Source: Candidatus Curtissbacteria bacterium RIFCSPLOWO2_01_FULL_41_18 (GTDB lineage Bacteria > Patescibacteriota > Microgenomatia > Curtissbacterales > GWA2-41-24). Taken from it: DNA of 41,554 nucleotides. The stretch spans positions 1 to 41,554 of the forward strand of contig MFBQ01000025.1 of NCBI GenBank assembly GCA_001776475.1, given 5' to 3'. A model generated the notes under the pieces. The model did not search any database. It saw only the letters and a list, made by a program, of their open reading frames with translations, and was not told the DNA's origin. This document shows positions 4,036-24,082 of this stretch, piece after piece; the first letter of the stretch is position 1; each line of letters starts with the position of its first letter. Both the position numbers and the translations under genes were made by a program.

Positions 4036-5223
4036 ATGGACAAAATAGATGAACTGTTAACAAGAGCAGTAGACAATGTTATTCCTTCAAAAAAAGAGCT
4101 TGAAGATGTACTAAGGAGCGGCAAGAAACTGCGCGTATATCAGGGTTTTGATCCATCAACTGCCCAACTGCACATTGGCCATATGATAGGCCTTAGGAAA
4201 CTACGCCAGTGGCAAGAATTAGGCCATGAAGTAATTTTCTTAATCGGGGATTTTACCGGAATGATTGGTGACCCTACAGGAAAAGAAGAAACGAGACCAC
4301 TTCTTGAGAAAGAAGTCGTCGAAGAAAACGCCAAAACTTACAAGCAACAAGCCGCCAAAATTCTAAATTTTGATGGCAAAAACCCGGTAAAAATAAAGTT
4401 CAACAGCCAGTGGCTCGGGCAATTGTCCTCACAGGAATTTTTAAATTTGGCATCCCTTGTCACATATCAACAGGTCATCAAAAGAGATATGTACAGAAAA
4501 AGGATAAAAGCAGATAAAGACATTTCAATAAATGAAATTATGTACCCGATAATGCAGGGTTACGATTCAGTTGCGATGGATATAGATGTTGAAGTTGGCG
4601 GCCGGGACCAGCTTTTCAATATGATGATGGGCCGGGATCTTATGCACAAACTAAAGCGCAAAAATAAATTTGTGATGACTACGGCACTTTTGACCGATCC
4701 CCAAGGCAACAAAATCGGCAAAACAGGCGGCAATGCAATCAACTTTTCAGACTCTGCAAACTCCATGTATGGGGCTATTATGAATTTTCCGGACGATGTG
4801 ATTGTAAAAGGCCTTGAGTATCTGGCAGATGTTCCCATGGAAAAAATAAAAAAAGCCAAACAAGCATTGGAAACTTTCAAAAACCCGATTGAATATAAAA
4901 AACTTTTAGCATTGGCAGTAGTCAAACAGCTTCATAGCGAAAAGGAGGCTCAAGCCGCACAAAGCGAATTTGAAAAAACGTTCCAAAAAAGGAGTGCACC
5001 AGATTCAATCCCAACAGTAATAATTGATGAACCCAGTGTCGAGCTTGCAGATTTTCTAGTTGAAAACAGTTTAGCTGCCAGCAAATCGGATGCAAAAAGA
5101 TTACTACACCAAAAAGCCATAGAAATCGATGGACAAATAGTAGAAAATGATGAAGTCGAGTTTGAGGACAATCAAGTTTTAAAAGTCGGCAAAAAGAAAT
5201 TTGCTCGCATAAAGGTACAATAG
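4036..5223 (+). CDS. tyrS: Tyrosine--tRNA ligase
   Basis: Class I HIGH motif (AQLHIGHMIG), a KMSKS-like motif (KIGKTGG), and a C-terminal S4-like domain (SKSDAKRLLHQKAIEIDGQIV). Confidence 0.95.
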   Translation: MDKIDELLTRAVDNVIPSKKELEDVLRSGKKLRVYQGFDPSTAQLHIGHMIGLRKLRQWQELGHEVIFLIGDFTGMIGDPTGKEETRPLLEKEVVEENAKTYKQQAAKILNFDGKNPVKIKFNSQWLGQLSSQEFLNLASLVTYQQVIKRDMYRKRIKADKDISINEIMYPIMQGYDSVAMDIDVEVGGRDQLFNMMMGRDLMHKLKRKNKFVMTTALLTDPQGNKIGKTGGNAINFSDSANSMYGAIMNFPDDVIVKGLEYLADVPMEKIKKAKQALETFKNPIEYKKLLALAVVKQLHSEKEAQAAQSEFEKTFQKRSAPDSIPTVIIDEPSVELADFLVENSLAASKSDAKRLLHQKAIEIDGQIVENDEVEFEDNQVLKVGKKKFARIKVQ

Positions 5224-5251
5224 GTACGAAAAGTATGAGAGGTACGAAACG
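5214..5251. repeat. Upstream GTAC-word array, the left arm of an inverted repeat flanking the four-helix-bundle gene
   Basis: GGTACaataGGTACgaaaaGTAtgagaGGTACgaaacg with a period of about 9-10 nt. It overlaps the tyrS stop codon and abuts the GTG start at 5251. Confidence 0.7.
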
Positions 5252-5610
5252 TGGGTGAAAGTAGAGGTTTCCGAAACTTAATAGTTTGGAAACGCATGCA
5301 AGAGTTAGTAGCTTTAGTCTACAAACTCTGCAAAAGTTTACCCGAAGACGAAAAATATGGCCTAATTTCTCAAATGAAACGAGCAGCCGTTTCGGTCCTT
5401 TCGAATTTTGTAGAAGGCTATCTTAAAAGTAGTAAAAAAGAAAAACTATTGTATTTAGAACGATCTGCCACATCACTGTTGGAACTTGAAGCTCAAGTTG
5501 AAGTTTGTTTGGTTCTAGGTTATCTTAATGAAAGCGATAGCCAAATATTTAGTCAAAAGAAATCAGAAGTCGGTTATCTTTTACATCGGTACAAAAGCAA
5601 AATTATTTAG
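5251..5610 (+). CDS. Four-helix-bundle protein (23S rRNA intervening-sequence protein / S23p, Avd-like family)
   Basis: Characteristic N-terminus FRNLIVWKRMQELVALVYKLCKSLPEDEKYGLISQMKRAAVSVLSNFVEGY. The protein is 119 aa with a GTG start. Confidence 0.85.
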   Translation: MGESRGFRNLIVWKRMQELVALVYKLCKSLPEDEKYGLISQMKRAAVSVLSNFVEGYLKSSKKEKLLYLERSATSLLELEAQVEVCLVLGYLNESDSQIFSQKKSEVGYLLHRYKSKII

Positions 5611-5650
5611 CGTTTCGTACATTTCGTACCTTTTGTACTTCTCGTACTTT
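5611..5650. repeat. Downstream GTAC-word array, the right arm of the inverted repeat
   Basis: cgtttcGTACatttcGTACcttttGTACttctcGTACtttt. The first 10 nt, cgtttcgtac, are the exact reverse complement of gtacgaaacg at 5242-5251. Confidence 0.7.
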
Positions 5651-5651
5651 T

Positions 5652-5768
5652 ATGAGGCTTTTCAAACGTTCTTATCTTAAAAAAATTTGGATTGCAATTA
5701 TCATCTTGGCAGGCCTCAGCTTTATTATCGGCCAATTTGCCCTCTACCTCTTTTACGGCCTCCGATAG
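5652..5768 (+). CDS. Possible small membrane protein (38 aa)
   Basis: My translation is MRLFKRSYLKKIWIAIIILAGLSFIIGQFALYLFYGLR*, which contains one hydrophobic helix. It falls below the length cutoff of the ORF track and has no other support. Confidence 0.3.
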   Translation: MRLFKRSYLKKIWIAIIILAGLSFIIGQFALYLFYGLR

Positions 5769-5819
5769 TACTCTAAATTTGACATCGATACGTCAAGAAG
5801 AGTATATTTCGTCGAGTAC

Positions 5820-6383
5820 ATGACTGAGCACAAAGGCATTAGGACCTCTAAAGAATATGGTATAACCGAGTACAAAATCGGCCTACAAGATTCCGATGCA
5901 ATGATTACCATTCGACTTAGTAGGAAAGGTGACAGTTATGTTGTCACTTGGCTAAACCCAGACATCAGTACAAACGATTTCTTTTCAAAAGCACAAACAT
6001 TAGTCAACAGCATTAAAGAAGCCGGCAACAATTTTCCCTTAAAAAGAAAGATGTTCAGCGGTTTAGATTATTCGTTAGATGCAGATGGTAAAGATTTACA
6101 TGAGATCGATATAGAAGTCTTCGAGCCAATTGAAGAATTGGGAGACGCTTCTTTTGCCCGTTTTAACACGCCTTACGGCGATTTTACCTGGGAAAACTGG
6201 CCAGGAAACAAAGTACTAGGAGTAATAACACACGTAAATTCTCCTGATGAGCTATTCCAATTCATTATGGATAACTCTCACCCAAGCGCTAAAGACGGCC
6301 TTCGAGAAATTTTAGAAGACGTGGGGCAAAAAGCTTCTCAAAAAATGGCCGAGTCCGAAAAATCAGGTCAGAAAGCCTCTTGA
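5820..6383 (+). CDS. Hypothetical protein
   Basis: ORF of 187 aa, preceded by TTGACA, 18 nt, then TATATT at about 5781-5810. No recognisable motif. Confidence 0.6.
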   Translation: MTEHKGIRTSKEYGITEYKIGLQDSDAMITIRLSRKGDSYVVTWLNPDISTNDFFSKAQTLVNSIKEAGNNFPLKRKMFSGLDYSLDADGKDLHEIDIEVFEPIEELGDASFARFNTPYGDFTWENWPGNKVLGVITHVNSPDELFQFIMDNSHPSAKDGLREILEDVGQKASQKMAESEKSGQKAS

Positions 6384-9961: not shown

Positions 9962-10213
9962 ATGACCGATACAGAAATCTTAGAAGATCTCAAAAAAATC
10001 ATCCATAAACAATTTGACATTCCCGAGGAAGACATAGAAGAAAACTCCTACTTTGACCAGGATTTAAATATTTCAGAATTAGAAATTGAAGATCTGATTA
10101 GTCAGGTTGAAGAAAAATATAACATTAAAATTCCGCAAGAGGTGATTCCTCCCTTTGAAAAAATTTCCGATCTGGTTGACTACCTCTATGAAAATACCGA
10201 AATCTCAGTCTAA
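9962..10213 (+). CDS. Acyl carrier protein-like protein
   Basis: It aligns by eye to E. coli ACP: FDQDLNISELEIEDLISQVEEKYNIKIPQE against [30 protein letters not shown]. The phosphopantetheine Ser is retained in an ISE context. It lies directly upstream of rnc, as I recall for the Bacillus subtilis ACP gene. The track ORF begins at a TTG at 9956; the ATG at 9962 is more likely. Confidence 0.65.
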   Translation: MTDTEILEDLKKIIHKQFDIPEEDIEENSYFDQDLNISELEIEDLISQVEEKYNIKIPQEVIPPFEKISDLVDYLYENTEISV

Positions 10214-10973
10214 AAAAAGTCAAAAAACAGCTTCTGCCAATTTAGCACAAGATCAGAACCTAAAGGATCTGCAAATTAAAATTGGTTTAACCTTCAGTGA
10301 CCAAACTCTACTAAAAAATGCCTTCATTCACCGATCATATCTCAATGAACATAAAAACTTCAGGGGTACATCAAACGAAAGGCTCGAATTTTTAGGCGAT
10401 TCTGTTATTTCCGTAATCGTCTCGCGATATCTTTTTGAAAAACTTCGCCAAAGCCCCGAAGGGGAATTAACTCAGCTAAGAGCTGCTCTTGTTAGAACCG
10501 AAACGCTGGCAAAAATCGCAAGGAAATTAAACCTCGGTAATTACCTGCTCCTTTCAAAAGGGGAGGAAGATTCCGAAGGCCGGCACAACAGCTCTATTCT
10601 GGCCAATACGTTCGAAGCACTTATCGGGGCTATTTATCTTGACAAAGGCTTTGAGCACACAGAGAAATTCTTGGCAAAAATGATCTTAGGCAACTGGCAA
10701 ACTCTGGCAAAAAGTGCGGTCTCTGACAATAAATCAAAACTCCAGGAAATTCTGCAGAGAAAATACCACCAATCACCTACATATAAACTTATCTCAACCT
10801 GGGGACCAGACCATGATAAAAAATTCCAAATTGGAGTTTATTTAAGCGATAAGCTTCTCGGCAAGGGCCTTGGTAGAAATAAACAACAAGCTGCCCAAAA
10901 AGCAGCCGAGAATGTTTTGGCAAAAATCGCAGTGGATCAAGACACAACAACAAACTTGAAGTTAGATAGCTAA
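10188..10973 (+). CDS. rnc: Ribonuclease III
   Basis: RNase III signature NERLEFLGDSV, a second catalytic block NTFEALIGAIYLD, and a C-terminal dsRBD (KSKLQEILQ...GLGRNKQQAAQKAAENVL). The track ORF starts at 10155; the ATG at 10188 gives a shorter overlap with the upstream gene. Confidence 0.9.
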   Translation: MKIPKSQSKKSQKTASANLAQDQNLKDLQIKIGLTFSDQTLLKNAFIHRSYLNEHKNFRGTSNERLEFLGDSVISVIVSRYLFEKLRQSPEGELTQLRAALVRTETLAKIARKLNLGNYLLLSKGEEDSEGRHNSSILANTFEALIGAIYLDKGFEHTEKFLAKMILGNWQTLAKSAVSDNKSKLQEILQRKYHQSPTYKLISTWGPDHDKKFQIGVYLSDKLLGKGLGRNKQQAAQKAAENVLAKIAVDQDTTTNLKLDS

Positions 10974-20757: not shown

Positions 20758-22774
20758 ATTCACCCTTGCGTTTTTCGCTATCTAATTTATCTTGCCAGAC
20801 TTTGACGGCATTTTTATCACAATCTTGCGAGAACCTAACAAGGCTTTGCAACACATCAATGCTATGTGAATTGACGACATATGCCTGTATATAGGCGCTT
20901 TTGGCACCTTCACAATCCGAAAGTTTCATGTAAGCGTCGCCCGAACCTATTAATGCTCCCGTTTTATCGGAAAGTAATTCGGAAAGTAATAGGGAAGCAT
21001 TCCTGAAATACGCTTGAGATTCACGGACAAAACCGCGAGCTAGCATTTCATTACCGACCCCAACAAGCGAAAAATAATACAATTCTTTGATATGCTCGGG
21101 AATAAAATGCGTATAGCCAAAATTGGCCCCGAAGTCTTTAAGATTAAATTGCGAGTAGGCTTTAGTGTTAAGATTAAGTACAGTTTCAGAATCCACATCA
21201 TCTTTTTCCAGCTTGTTCAAAAGACCTACGGGCAGCCAAACGTACCCCTTTTTTATAGGCGGTTGAAAACCTAGAGAATAAATCGCAAGCTTACCTAGAT
21301 TAGATTTAATAAGTTCAGTCATAAAGTAGGCACTCTCTGCGTCAGTAAACTCTGCAAAATTATCAGGGAAAGTAAGATCCGGGTATTCTCGCATCAATTG
21401 TTGTCGATAATCCAAGTGTCGCAGCAGCCCTCCAGCAATCACTTTGCGGTCGCCAAAGTCGCTGCTTGTATAAAAAACGTACTGCGTATTAAATACCAGC
21501 GTGTCATCAAACAGAAAAAGCATTGAGCCCGGTTCGCTTGAAACAAGCGCATCATGCCCCAGCCAATCTCCCAGTTTAAAACCGGACAAATCAGTTTTAG
21601 GGTAGTTAACCAATAAAAGGGTTAAGGGAAATGCCAAAAATGACAAGCCAAAGATTAAAAATACCACCTCGCGTTTTATAAAACTCAACCTTATCTTCTT
21701 CAAAAATTTATCGACAATAAATTCAAAGACTGCCACAACGCCAAATGCCAAAAAAATCGCCAGGAAAAAGTAGCTTAAAAGCAAAAACCTTTCCCATATT
21801 CCAAAGAGGAAACTGCCGCTAAGAGCAAAACTGGCATAAGCCAAAAAAAACGGCCCGCTAAAAAAAGCGGCCAAAAAAAGAAACCAAAAAAGAACCTTTT
21901 CCCGCTTTATAAGATAAACTGCTCCTAAAATCATAAGCAATATTCCAAAAAGTGTGAAATCCGATTTTACGAAACCAAAATAGGATAAAACCTGCCAGAC
22001 TCTCTCGCCAGCTCGCGCCCCAACAAAGCTCTTTGAAGCGATAAAAGACCCATAGTCTGCGCGAGTTACCAATCTTGCGAAATGGTCTAAATTTGAAGCA
22101 TCGGTCCAATTTATAGGCGTTTTTCGCAAAGCCGCAAAAGGCACATAAATGTAGGGGGTAAATCCCAAAAGGAAAAAGCCGAAAAGTTTAAGTAAAGATT
22201 TAAGTTTGCCAAATATCTTTTTATCGGTTTTATAAATCAAGAAAAAATATGCCGGTGCCAGAAGAACCGATGTCTGATGGTGAAAAACGGCAAGACCCCA
22301 AAAAAGAAATGCTAAATAGAGGAATTTTATCTCGCCCCTTTTTTTGCTAAAAGACTGTCGCCATAAAATTAGAAAATAACAACTAATACTTACAAGCAGC
22401 AAATTAAGCTGAAAAACTTCGGCAACGTGAGCATACAACCAGAAAAGGGGAGTAAAGGCTAAAATGAAGACAGCGGAAAGAGATGCAAAAATGTTTTTGG
22501 TGAGTTTATAAAGTGTCAAAAAAACAACTCCAACAACCAAACTTTGAACAATTGCCATCATCAAATTAGCCTTGTAGGCGACACTTATCCCAACCGGTAG
22601 GTGGGTGAAAATCCAGCCAATCATGGTATTGAGAGGATATCCCGGAGGATGGGCAACACCGCCAAAATAAGCAGCTAAAATAATATCGCCGGAATCTCCT
22701 CCATAAACTGAGGGAGATACACCCAAGATATAAATCGAAAATGTAAAAAATGAAATTAATAAGAAAATCAGCAT
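20744..22774 (-). CDS. DUF2723/TMEM260-like GT-C membrane protein with a C-terminal TPR-like region
   Basis: N-terminal signature SVYGGDSGDIILAAYFGGVAHPPGYPL, many TM helices, and a soluble helical C-terminus. Its 3' end overlaps the convergent YfhO-like gene by 14 nt. Confidence 0.7.
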   Translation of the reverse strand: MLIFLLISFFTFSIYILGVSPSVYGGDSGDIILAAYFGGVAHPPGYPLNTMIGWIFTHLPVGISVAYKANLMMAIVQSLVVGVVFLTLYKLTKNIFASLSAVFILAFTPLFWLYAHVAEVFQLNLLLVSISCYFLILWRQSFSKKRGEIKFLYLAFLFWGLAVFHHQTSVLLAPAYFFLIYKTDKKIFGKLKSLLKLFGFFLLGFTPYIYVPFAALRKTPINWTDASNLDHFARLVTRADYGSFIASKSFVGARAGERVWQVLSYFGFVKSDFTLFGILLMILGAVYLIKREKVLFWFLFLAAFFSGPFFLAYASFALSGSFLFGIWERFLLLSYFFLAIFLAFGVVAVFEFIVDKFLKKIRLSFIKREVVFLIFGLSFLAFPLTLLLVNYPKTDLSGFKLGDWLGHDALVSSEPGSMLFLFDDTLVFNTQYVFYTSSDFGDRKVIAGGLLRHLDYRQQLMREYPDLTFPDNFAEFTDAESAYFMTELIKSNLGKLAIYSLGFQPPIKKGYVWLPVGLLNKLEKDDVDSETVLNLNTKAYSQFNLKDFGANFGYTHFIPEHIKELYYFSLVGVGNEMLARGFVRESQAYFRNASLLLSELLSDKTGALIGSGDAYMKLSDCEGAKSAYIQAYVVNSHSIDVLQSLVRFSQDCDKNAVKVWQDKLDSEKRKGESKFR

Positions 22775-24082
22775 TTACTCAGCAAATGAAGACTTTTCGT
22801 CAACCAAGCCAATTATACTGGCAAAAAGTATGAGCAGTGAAATAAAAAAGTAATGATTAACAAAAGCAAGTTTATTGAAAAAAGAGAGGGCAAAAAGTAA
22901 GAGTGCAATTGCTAGTAAAAGTTTGTGCCAATTATCCGGCCTTTTAATTAAAACTAAAGCTAAAGGCAAAAGCCCCAAAATATTCATCAAGGTCTTTGGT
23001 AAATCCTTGCCAAAAGTAAAGAAAATAAAGGAGTTTAATGTAATGCTATCGTGCCTTACTGGATAAGTTACATAGAACTTTACCAAATCGTCCCAAAAAT
23101 CGCCAAAATTCCACAACGCAAATGGCAAAAAAGCAAGAAAGATAGCTCCCAAAGATAAAAAGACCGTTTTTCTTGCAATTTTCTTAAATAAAAAGAAAAC
23201 AGGGGAGATGATTAACATTGTATGCCTCATACCAAGGAAAAATGCCAAAGGTATAAACGAGAATTTTTTAAGTTCTTTTGAACACCGCTCAAAATAAACA
23301 AAAAGCACAAGCATCATAAAAATAAGAGGGTCCATCCAAGATTGCTCTAAAATTATCGACTCAGAAGGGTGATACAAAAATAAAAGAGGCAACAGATATT
23401 TTGCCCGACTGGACAGATTCTTAGCTTTACTTAAAATTTTATATAAAAGAAAAACTACAACTAGATCACTCACCAAATAAGTGTATCTTGGGTCGTTAAA
23501 CAAAATGTCAGCAGGCAAAAATAAATAAAGAGTCAGTGGAGAATACGAATAATAATCGGCAGTAACACCTCTGTAAAGTTGAGGGTAACTCTGAGAATAA
23601 GGATTTTTACCCTCTATTAAATACTTTGGGCCCAGCTTAAAAAGATCAAAGGTGTCTATTCTTGGAGCAGACGACGCTAGAATTAACAAAAATCGCGAGA
23701 CAAGAGCGATACAGACAAGAAGAGCAAAAGACAGCGGGAAAACACGTTTTCTAAAATTTGGGGTATCAATTGTGAATATGAAAGACAAAACAATAACTAA
23801 AGGCAAAAAGTATTCAAGAGCTGTTTTTGGAAAGCCTGGCTGAAAATAAATTCCACCGTATAAAAGCACATACAAAAGAGCATTAAAAATAAAGATGAAA
23901 AGTACCAGACTATTTATATCCAAATTCGCGAAGAAAACTTTGGCTTTTTTCGCAAAAAATAAAATTGATAGAAAAACCAAGCTAAAAGCAAGTATCCAGA
24001 AAAGCCGTGGATTGTACTGCCCTCTAGTAAAAACGTAGCCAAAATTAAATAGAAAATACAAAACTAAAGTTGCCCGAAGCAT
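22775..24082 (-). CDS. Polytopic membrane protein, possibly a GT-C/DUF2029-like glycosyltransferase
   Basis: A 435-aa protein that is hydrophobic throughout, with a loop GKNPYSQSYPQLYRGVTADYYSYSPLTLY reminiscent of mannosyltransferase-like families. Its stop abuts the next gene's start with zero spacer. Confidence 0.4.
   Translation of the reverse strand: MLRATLVLYFLFNFGYVFTRGQYNPRLFWILAFSLVFLSILFFAKKAKVFFANLDINSLVLFIFIFNALLYVLLYGGIYFQPGFPKTALEYFLPLVIVLSFIFTIDTPNFRKRVFPLSFALLVCIALVSRFLLILASSAPRIDTFDLFKLGPKYLIEGKNPYSQSYPQLYRGVTADYYSYSPLTLYLFLPADILFNDPRYTYLVSDLVVVFLLYKILSKAKNLSSRAKYLLPLLFLYHPSESIILEQSWMDPLIFMMLVLFVYFERCSKELKKFSFIPLAFFLGMRHTMLIISPVFFLFKKIARKTVFLSLGAIFLAFLPFALWNFGDFWDDLVKFYVTYPVRHDSITLNSFIFFTFGKDLPKTLMNILGLLPLALVLIKRPDNWHKLLLAIALLLFALSFFNKLAFVNHYFFISLLILFASIIGLVDEKSSFAE

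Follow-up and report, generated by a model that had tools for sequence, protein, structure and literature searches.

An operon-dwelling, intervening-sequence-like cassette with inverted GTAC-word arms between tyrS and a small peptide gene of a Curtissbacteria genome

How does a gene of a family first found inside 23S ribosomal RNA (rRNA) intervening sequences (IVSs) come to lie between protein-coding genes, and what might be the role of the inverted arrays of short words that enclose it there? This question is raised by a stretch of 41,554 nucleotides (nt), contig MFBQ01000025.1 of assembly GCA_001776475.1 from the groundwater bacterium Candidatus Curtissbacteria bacterium RIFCSPLOWO2_01_FULL_41_18, which is uncultured (hereafter, the window), in which a 119-amino-acid (aa) four-helix-bundle gene (5251-5610, plus strand) is situated between tyrS and a 38-aa hydrophobic peptide gene, which we call pep38. 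To our knowledge, the only published setting of the S23p, or 23S-IVS, family is inside rRNA. Its role has been debated since the 1990s, and its members count among the most frequent small genes without a known function. We found no paper that links genes of this family (PF05635) outside rRNA with repeat arms, and no published description of such cassettes outside rRNA was found. We are highly confident that the locus holds a promoter-less cassette in which one basic S23p/PF05635 gene is enclosed by inverted word arrays, which was inserted as a block, and which belongs to a clade that occupies six junctions, keeps its word and has covarying arms. The complete statement that we favour, to which we assign a probability of about 0.5, is that this is an IVS-like cassette dwelling in an operon, which is transcribed, is cut by RNase III and encodes a protein that recognises the arms.

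The arrays form a single 44-nt inverted repeat (5208-5251 and 5611-5654), which a repeat search reported as 80% complementary with 359 nt between the arms and in which we counted 35 Watson-Crick and 5 G-U pairs along with 4 mismatches; the repeat brackets the four-helix-bundle gene from its start codon to its stop codon. The purine-rich left arm is composed of the units GTACAATAG, GTACGAAAA, GTATGAGAG and GTACGAAAC, and the pyrimidine-rich right arm, read as its reverse complement, of GTACGAGAA, GTACAAAAG, GTACGAAAT and again GTACGAAAC. The arm word thus consists of a GTAC (or GTAT) core and five variable bases, repeated with a 9-nt period; in the right arm, Tandem Repeats Finder (TRF) detected 4.3 copies of period 9 at 5613-5651. 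The left arm takes in the last 16 nt of tyrS, including the TAG stop (5221-5223), and holds a Shine-Dalgarno-like GAGAGG (5236-5241), and its final base is the first of the GTG start. Immediately past the TAG stop of the cassette open reading frame (ORF), the right arm begins, and it ends by covering the ATG (5652-5654) of pep38, a gene missing from the first-pass annotation. That annotation had described inverted GTAC-word arrays of roughly 40 nt around the gene, a left arm that overlaps the tyrS stop and reaches the GTG start, and perfect complementarity between gtacgaaacg (5242-5251) and cgtttcgtac (5611-5620); each of these descriptions holds, with the arrays now joined into one 44-nt repeat and the innermost pairs abutting the start and stop codons.

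Folding of 5200-5670 closed this stem in both the minimum-free-energy and the centroid structures (z -5.0; 0 of 100 shuffles as stable), and the arms alone, joined by a GAAA loop, gave -52.6 kcal/mol (z -9.1; 0 of 200 shuffles as stable); the outcome that the first-pass annotation had named as refuting, a stem no more stable than shuffled controls, was thus not observed. A 44-base-pair (bp) duplex with small internal loops would be a plausible substrate of RNase III, and the rnc gene that had been noted in the window was confirmed at 10188-10970 on the plus strand (TIGR02191, 251 bits against a cut-off of 166), its product being a candidate trans-acting processing enzyme. The genome (634 kb in 47 contigs, 81% complete, 40% G+C) is rich in short tandem word arrays, with 261 of period 6-11 found by TRF and 144 of period 7-10 left after filtering, and a chance origin of the arms therefore needed testing. 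We applied a uniform flank score to the complementarity between the surroundings of the start codon and those of the stop codon (match +2, transition -1, transversion -3). The cassette gene ranked first of 608 crude genes in the genome (score 57; median 17; 95th percentile 24); this repeat is the strongest gene-bracketing repeat in the 634 kb. No promoter-like or terminator-like site was found between tyrS and the cassette ORF, and the possibility that the arms are an intrinsic terminator or carry a promoter of their own was rejected, as none was found. Rfam recognised no RNA family in the window.

The assignment of the 119-aa gene to the 23S IVS protein family, made initially from the sequence alone, was upheld by matches above the cut-offs to both PF05635 (23S_rRNA_IVP; E 1.1e-27, 96.7 bits, cut-off 33.8) and TIGR02436 ('four helix bundle protein'; 85.7 bits, cut-off 24). 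The AlphaFold2 monomer model, with a predicted local distance difference test (pLDDT) score of 95.9, has four long helices, and Foldseek aligned it to XCC0516 (2GSC) at a template modelling (TM) score of 0.91-0.93, to BT_0352 (2RLD) at about 0.8 and, more distantly, to Avd of diversity-generating retroelements (4DWL, 8UB7) at about 0.79. 2GSC and 2RLD, the closest solved structures, were each deposited with five chains; the encoded protein is probably pentameric. The protein is basic, with an isoelectric point (pI) of 9.2 against a family median of 9.3. Two other identities were considered and rejected: for Avd itself, NF033474 gave 36.8 bits, below the cut-off of 80, and no RVT_1 match was present in the 81%-complete assembly; for an anti-phage defence gene, no PADLOC family matched at E <= 0.01.

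Comparison with relatives suggests how the cassette reached its present position. The upstream host gene tyrS (4036-5223, plus strand; PF00579, E 1.7e-65) is followed by recG in 27 of 27 same-class relatives with enough sequence, and a homologous hydrophobic peptide ORF of 37-49 aa lies between the two genes in all 12 relatives inspected by translation. The downstream host gene pep38 (5652-5768, plus strand; MRLFKRSYLKKIWIAIIILAGLSFIIGQFALYLFYGLR), which matches no Pfam or NCBIfam family, probably encodes a small membrane protein that is conserved as part of a tyrS-pep38-recG row. Measured between the tyrS stop and the ATG of pep38, the gap is 10 nt (L038), 19 nt (L051), 20 nt (L042) or -4 nt (L047) in these relatives and 428 nt in the window, where the extra segment spans 5224-5651 on the plus strand. 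Relatives show an empty site between tyrS and pep38; the cassette is an insertion, and it entered as one block at this junction. The first-pass annotation had suggested insertion as a unit and had pointed to the region downstream of tyrS in relatives as the place for an empty site; the spacers of -4 to 20 nt against 428 nt, together with the GTAC-armed relatives at five other junctions described below, bear out both ideas. Five metagenome contigs hold a 99%-identical cassette protein in the same tyrS to recG context, and in these same-species contigs the arms are letter-for-letter identical and nearby tyrS codons carry substitutions. The outermost left word (AAGGTACAATAG) is nearly the same as the native tyrS end of one relative (AAGGTAGAATAG in L043), so the insertion may have used, or made, a word-like target. 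A transposon or miniature inverted-repeat transposable element was also considered as the identity of the cassette and was rejected, with no transposase, no target duplication seen, and the arms of the five paralogues having no common sequence.

The cassette is one member of a clade that occupies several positions. No fewer than five other junctions of co-directional genes are occupied by the clade in other bacteria. In a large protein collection, relatives of 68-78% identity were located at five such junctions, namely between pilC and a pilin gene, a Na/H exchanger gene and ACR_tran, T4SS-pilin and a pilin gene, frr and rseP, and tsf and frr, and all of them have inverted arms of 9-nt GTAC words; the innermost word of the window, CGTTTCGTAC, was found again in L162. 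The presence of the same armed gene at six junctions thus supports the notion of a portable module. In our first, independent sample, the six nearest relatives (46-65% identity; from Woesebacteria, Levyibacteriota, two Gammaproteobacteria-labelled metagenome-assembled genomes and two genomes of the class) all have the 9-nt period, which is rare among armed genes, and a core of GTAC or GTATC. Four-fold synonymous sites, compared between the window gene and these 46-65% relatives, are saturated (36 of 134, or 27%, identical). Flanks free of constraint would accordingly be expected to be random, but both the GTA(C/T) core and the spacing of 9 nt are retained; this pattern indicates that the word is under selection. 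Two of these contigs, which are labelled uncultured Gammaproteobacteria (L006 and L008; 65% and 54% identity), have GTAC/GTATC 9-nt arms, and their labels reflect either horizontal spread across phyla or mis-binned contigs.

Words and proteins also appear to change together. The sharing of arm 5-mers is 0.155 for pairs with protein identity >60%, 0.065 at 50-60% and about 0.04 at baseline, and the period is the same in 92%, 78% and about 50% of such pairs, respectively. Within the GTAC clade, the five variable unit positions agree at 0.63 within a cassette and at 0.48 between cassettes (permutation p < 0.0002). The two arms therefore co-evolve, whether by selection for pairing, by concerted evolution or by a word-reading factor changing along with them. 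In our reading of these sequences, the arm words co-evolve with the protein of the cassette, and a clade-specific word would be explained most simply if the encoded protein recognises its own arms.

Arms of this kind are common in the family as a whole. The genome holds five PF05635 genes, and the check proposed in the first-pass annotation, whether each paralogue is bracketed by inverted word arrays of its own, came out positive for all four with readable flanks, the window gene included; the words differ from gene to gene (GTATT, GTGA(A/T)AA, AAGGATA and GTAC-N5). The fifth gene has a CAGTTGA-type array upstream, and its downstream flank reads N. When a simpler score was used, the four with readable flanks came 2nd, 4th, 7th and 8th of 632 genes, and the other high scorers include IS200-like Y1 transposase genes (RAYT-type, RAYT being the tyrosine transposase associated with repetitive extragenic palindromic (REP) sequences), a GIY-YIG gene, three Trp-repressor-like genes and one PaaX-like gene. 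The three Trp-repressor-like genes of about 150 aa and the PaaX-like gene, which has a Cas2-like domain, are located in G000 at C20:8509-8946, C6:348-818, C20:3584-4042 and C30:13644-14237; they are bracketed by 26-36-nt inverted repeats that are not tandem words and could be operators or another type of cassette.

Of 151 genomes sampled from the class, 102 have the family, and a single genome of about 1 Mb can carry as many as 16 copies. An arm score of at least 27 was reached by 93 of 122 assessable family genes (76%; the class sample plus 31 loci from other phyla) and by 18 of 608 control genes (3%), the latter count including three of this genome's own four-helix-bundle genes. Among the 93 armed genes, the period is 7 nt in 66, 8 nt in 11 and 9 nt in 10, and the commonest number of units is 4-5 per arm (58 genes). 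The median gap is 7 nt between the end of the upstream arm and the start codon, and 0 nt between the stop codon and the downstream arm; in 83 of the 93, the upstream arm is rich in G and poor in C, a polarity that would survive inversion of the gene between its arms. Of 44 cassettes, 40 point the same way as the upstream gene (the genome baseline is 77%), and 35 the same way as the genes on both sides (baseline 62%). This assembly has no 23S gene, and among the best 150 family copies listed, none lies inside the 23S gene in the 20 relatives having one. In G021, a pseudogene-like PF05635 copy with an internal TAG (C27:19780-20091) is located about 770 nt upstream of the 23S gene (20858-23651), possibly within the rRNA operon.

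The mechanism that we favour is as follows. The cassette would be transcribed by read-through from tyrS, and the arms would pair in the RNA to form a duplex of about 44 bp that would hide the cassette's own ribosome-binding site and start codon. RNase III would cut this duplex, as it does in the IVSs of 23S rRNA, and the cut would separate the cassette RNA from the host message. The protein, probably as a pentamer, would recognise its own arms, and this could lead to autoregulation, protection or spread of the arrays. We place the cleavage step, which is extended here from the rRNA systems, slightly short of an even chance, and the recognition of the arms, for which the argument comes from sequence comparison, is somewhat more tentative again.

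The arrangement of a stem and an ORF that the first-pass annotation likened to rRNA IVSs does occur here between protein-coding genes, with the 44-nt stem enclosing a PF05635 ORF between tyrS and pep38. In the Coxiella IVS, the stem is 28 bp long, tandem heptamers precede the S23p start codon and the cuts made by RNase III fall inside the stem (PMC4990558); a 2024 survey reported family ORFs inside 16S and 23S insertions of candidate phyla radiation bacteria (PMC11270868). Our cassette resembles the helix 45 IVS of Coxiella and the Leptospira IVS in its protein family, in the position of the ORF in the loop of a long terminal-repeat stem and in the presence of an RNase III gene in the genome, and it shares with the Coxiella element the tandem short repeats directly before the start codon; the 428 nt of the Coxiella IVS and the 428 nt inserted here agree by coincidence. 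Unlike the 23S IVSs, the cassette sits between protein genes of an operon and not in an rRNA helix, its 44-nt stem consists wholly of 9-nt GTAC words, and cleavage by RNase III is a step that we infer; in Coxiella the ORF is decaying, but here it is conserved and intact. Strict membership in the 23S rRNA IVSs was rejected, as the cassette lies between tyrS and pep38 and not in rRNA.

Two other systems offer comparisons. Avd has the same four-helix-bundle fold (TM score of about 0.79), both proteins are small and basic, and Avd within an RNA-protein complex (8UB7) provides a precedent for contact with nucleic acid; unlike Avd, the cassette protein scores below the Avd cut-off, the 81%-complete assembly yielded no reverse transcriptase, and there are no template or variable repeats. 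As in REP/RAYT systems, hairpin-forming repeats lie on both sides of a gene and also occur without a gene across the genome, and as with abundant heptameric repeats, exemplified by the GGGNATC repeats of Xanthomonas and Nostoc (PMC4692102), the short-word arrays favour gaps between co-directional genes. Unlike RAYT, the cassette gene encodes no recognisable enzyme and each cassette has a word of its own; the published heptamer studies, in contrast to what we describe, name no associated gene family (PMC4692102).

Several observations weigh against the reading that we favour. By eye, no target-site duplication was seen at this locus in comparison with the empty sites, and the cassette revealed no mobility enzyme (recombinase, transposase or nuclease), its only ORF being the one for the four-helix bundle. 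A helix selected in the sense RNA would be expected to tolerate G-U and to purge A-C; over 93 cassettes, the mismatches number 215 of G-U type and 176 of A-C type (p = 0.054), with 110 and 99, respectively, in an earlier subset of 47 loci and 5 and 2 at this locus. The excess of G-U is at best a weak lean and does not in itself establish selection on RNA pairing. In-register identity between the arms is 0.79, a value inflated by the choice of the best register, and it falls to 0.71 after a shift by one period; with so small a difference, the complementarity comes mostly from both arms holding the same word. The argument for arm binding is drawn from covariation, part of which could be produced by shared descent together with concerted evolution of the repeats. 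Finally, the Coxiella S23p protein appears not to be made in vivo (PMC4990558).

Arrays without a gene are also relevant to the choice among explanations. Gene-less inverted word arrays occur at the same site between tyrS and pep38 in four relatives, with ATTGTT/AACAAT words in L045 (G018), L052 (G023) and L063 (G017), which represent three different genera, and with TTCTAAT/TTAGAAA words in L041 (G011). Upstream of recG, L043, L044, L052 and L063 have solo 9-nt arrays of GATAC or GGTAC words. In G018, where the ATTGTT hairpin is present, a family gene likewise has arms of ATTGTT words (L191), and in G017 and G023 the solo GATAC arrays match the arms of the cassettes resident there (L177 and L187; L178, respectively). 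The words of all five resident cassettes recur gene-less elsewhere in the genome, at 1, 3, 7, 1 and 4 places, and decoy words from the cassettes of other genomes were hit in 39% of cases (mean 0.79 places); by our own calculation against the decoy rate, the chance that five of five recur is about 0.01. Most of the approximately 144 arrays in the genome match no resident cassette, and a one-to-one partnership is thus not established. When all array words were subjected to single-linkage clustering, the heptamers were chained into one cluster and the 9-nt GTAC family stood apart. This GTAC family has two solo arrays in the genome, both read in frame inside genes and both purine-rich on the sense strand. 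One (C39:422-464 in G000) is in a Nudix hydrolase gene, before the Nudix fold, and reads KSTKGTRSMRGIKG; the other (C6:6339-6372 in G000) is in a 159-aa HExxH protein and reads KSTKGTGGTKG.

These arrays, together with the near balance of G-U and A-C mismatches, might be taken to mean that the arms act as DNA, in a mobile element based on hairpins or on recombination, like REP/RAYT or integron attC, with the inverted arrays as the substrate that folds or recombines and the protein as an accessory factor. Pairing in the transcript would then be a by-product, and gene-less inverted arrays would be landing pads or relics. The gene-less arrays at the same tyrS-pep38 site in L041, L045, L052 and L063, the matches between cassette words and gene-less arrays in G018, G017 and G023, the recurrence of resident words in five of five cases (at 1-7 places each) against 39% of decoys, and the many different junctions occupied by the clade are all in keeping with such an element. 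We nevertheless think it unlikely: the cassette has no identified recombinase, transposase or nuclease and no target duplication was seen; paralogue arms have no common sequence, which means that one enzyme could not recognise all of them; and the arms hug the start and stop codons, with the G-rich arm upstream in 83 of 93 cases, an arrangement that a role in expression fits better.

It is also conceivable that the arrays serve as operator-like rows of tandem sites, in DNA or in single-stranded RNA, to which the encoded oligomeric protein would bind as a domesticated regulator that controls itself and the dispersed arrays, so that the inverted layout would simply give symmetric sites with neither a hairpin nor RNase III being involved. 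The core of the word and its period go with the protein clade even though synonymous sites are saturated, arms commonly have 4-5 units (58 of 93) and 2GSC and 2RLD were deposited with five chains, the protein is basic, and arrays of the same word exist elsewhere in the genome. We consider this regulator improbable, as covariation between the arms at the variable spacer positions is not needed if the core alone is read, most of the approximately 144 arrays match no resident cassette, and the occupation of six junctions by one clade looks selfish rather than regulatory. The abundance of short tandem repeats in the genome (261 arrays of period 6-11 in 634 kb, and 144 of period 7-10 after filtering) makes it reasonable to ask whether the arms are coincidental, functionless local instances of these repeats. 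This explanation is scarcely credible and is already contradicted by the data, with 76% of family genes armed against 3% of controls, the locus ranking first of 608, and the word type travelling with the gene to other junctions and organisms. An IVS-like cassette that is transcribed and cut, and that encodes a protein recognising the arms, remains the explanation that we favour.

The same gene row contains further insertions. A 187-aa ORF (5820-6383, plus strand), which has no family match, lies between pep38 and recG, downstream of a near-consensus promoter-like site (TTGACA-18-TATATT at 5779-5808). This ORF is missing from the position between pep38 and recG in 27 of 27 relatives and is present in the same-species metagenome contigs; given its absence at that place in relatives, it is a second, unrelated insertion in the row. 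In L063 (G017), an ORF of about 136 aa between pep38 and recG is a further independent insertion.

The locus is a clean, datable insertion in a conserved gene row, and its clade keeps one word type across six unrelated junctions. A wider idea, which we put forward as speculative and doubtful at present, is that PF05635 proteins are oligomeric readers of clade-specific periodic words and propagate together with their arrays. Armed genes would be the autonomous elements, gene-less arrays would be non-autonomous elements or landing pads, and the IVSs of 23S rRNA would be copies that landed in rRNA. The gene-less set would then comprise the arrays between tyrS and pep38 in sister genera and the in-frame GTAC arrays of the Nudix and HExxH genes. 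If this idea is true, it would provide a function for a family that has been an orphan for 30 years, and it might also account for some of the bacterial excess of heptamer repeats, which is so far without explanation. If the protein binds the arrays, RNase III cuts the duplex and the cassette splits or silences the host operon, then the rRNA IVS would be a special case of a general operon-dwelling element.

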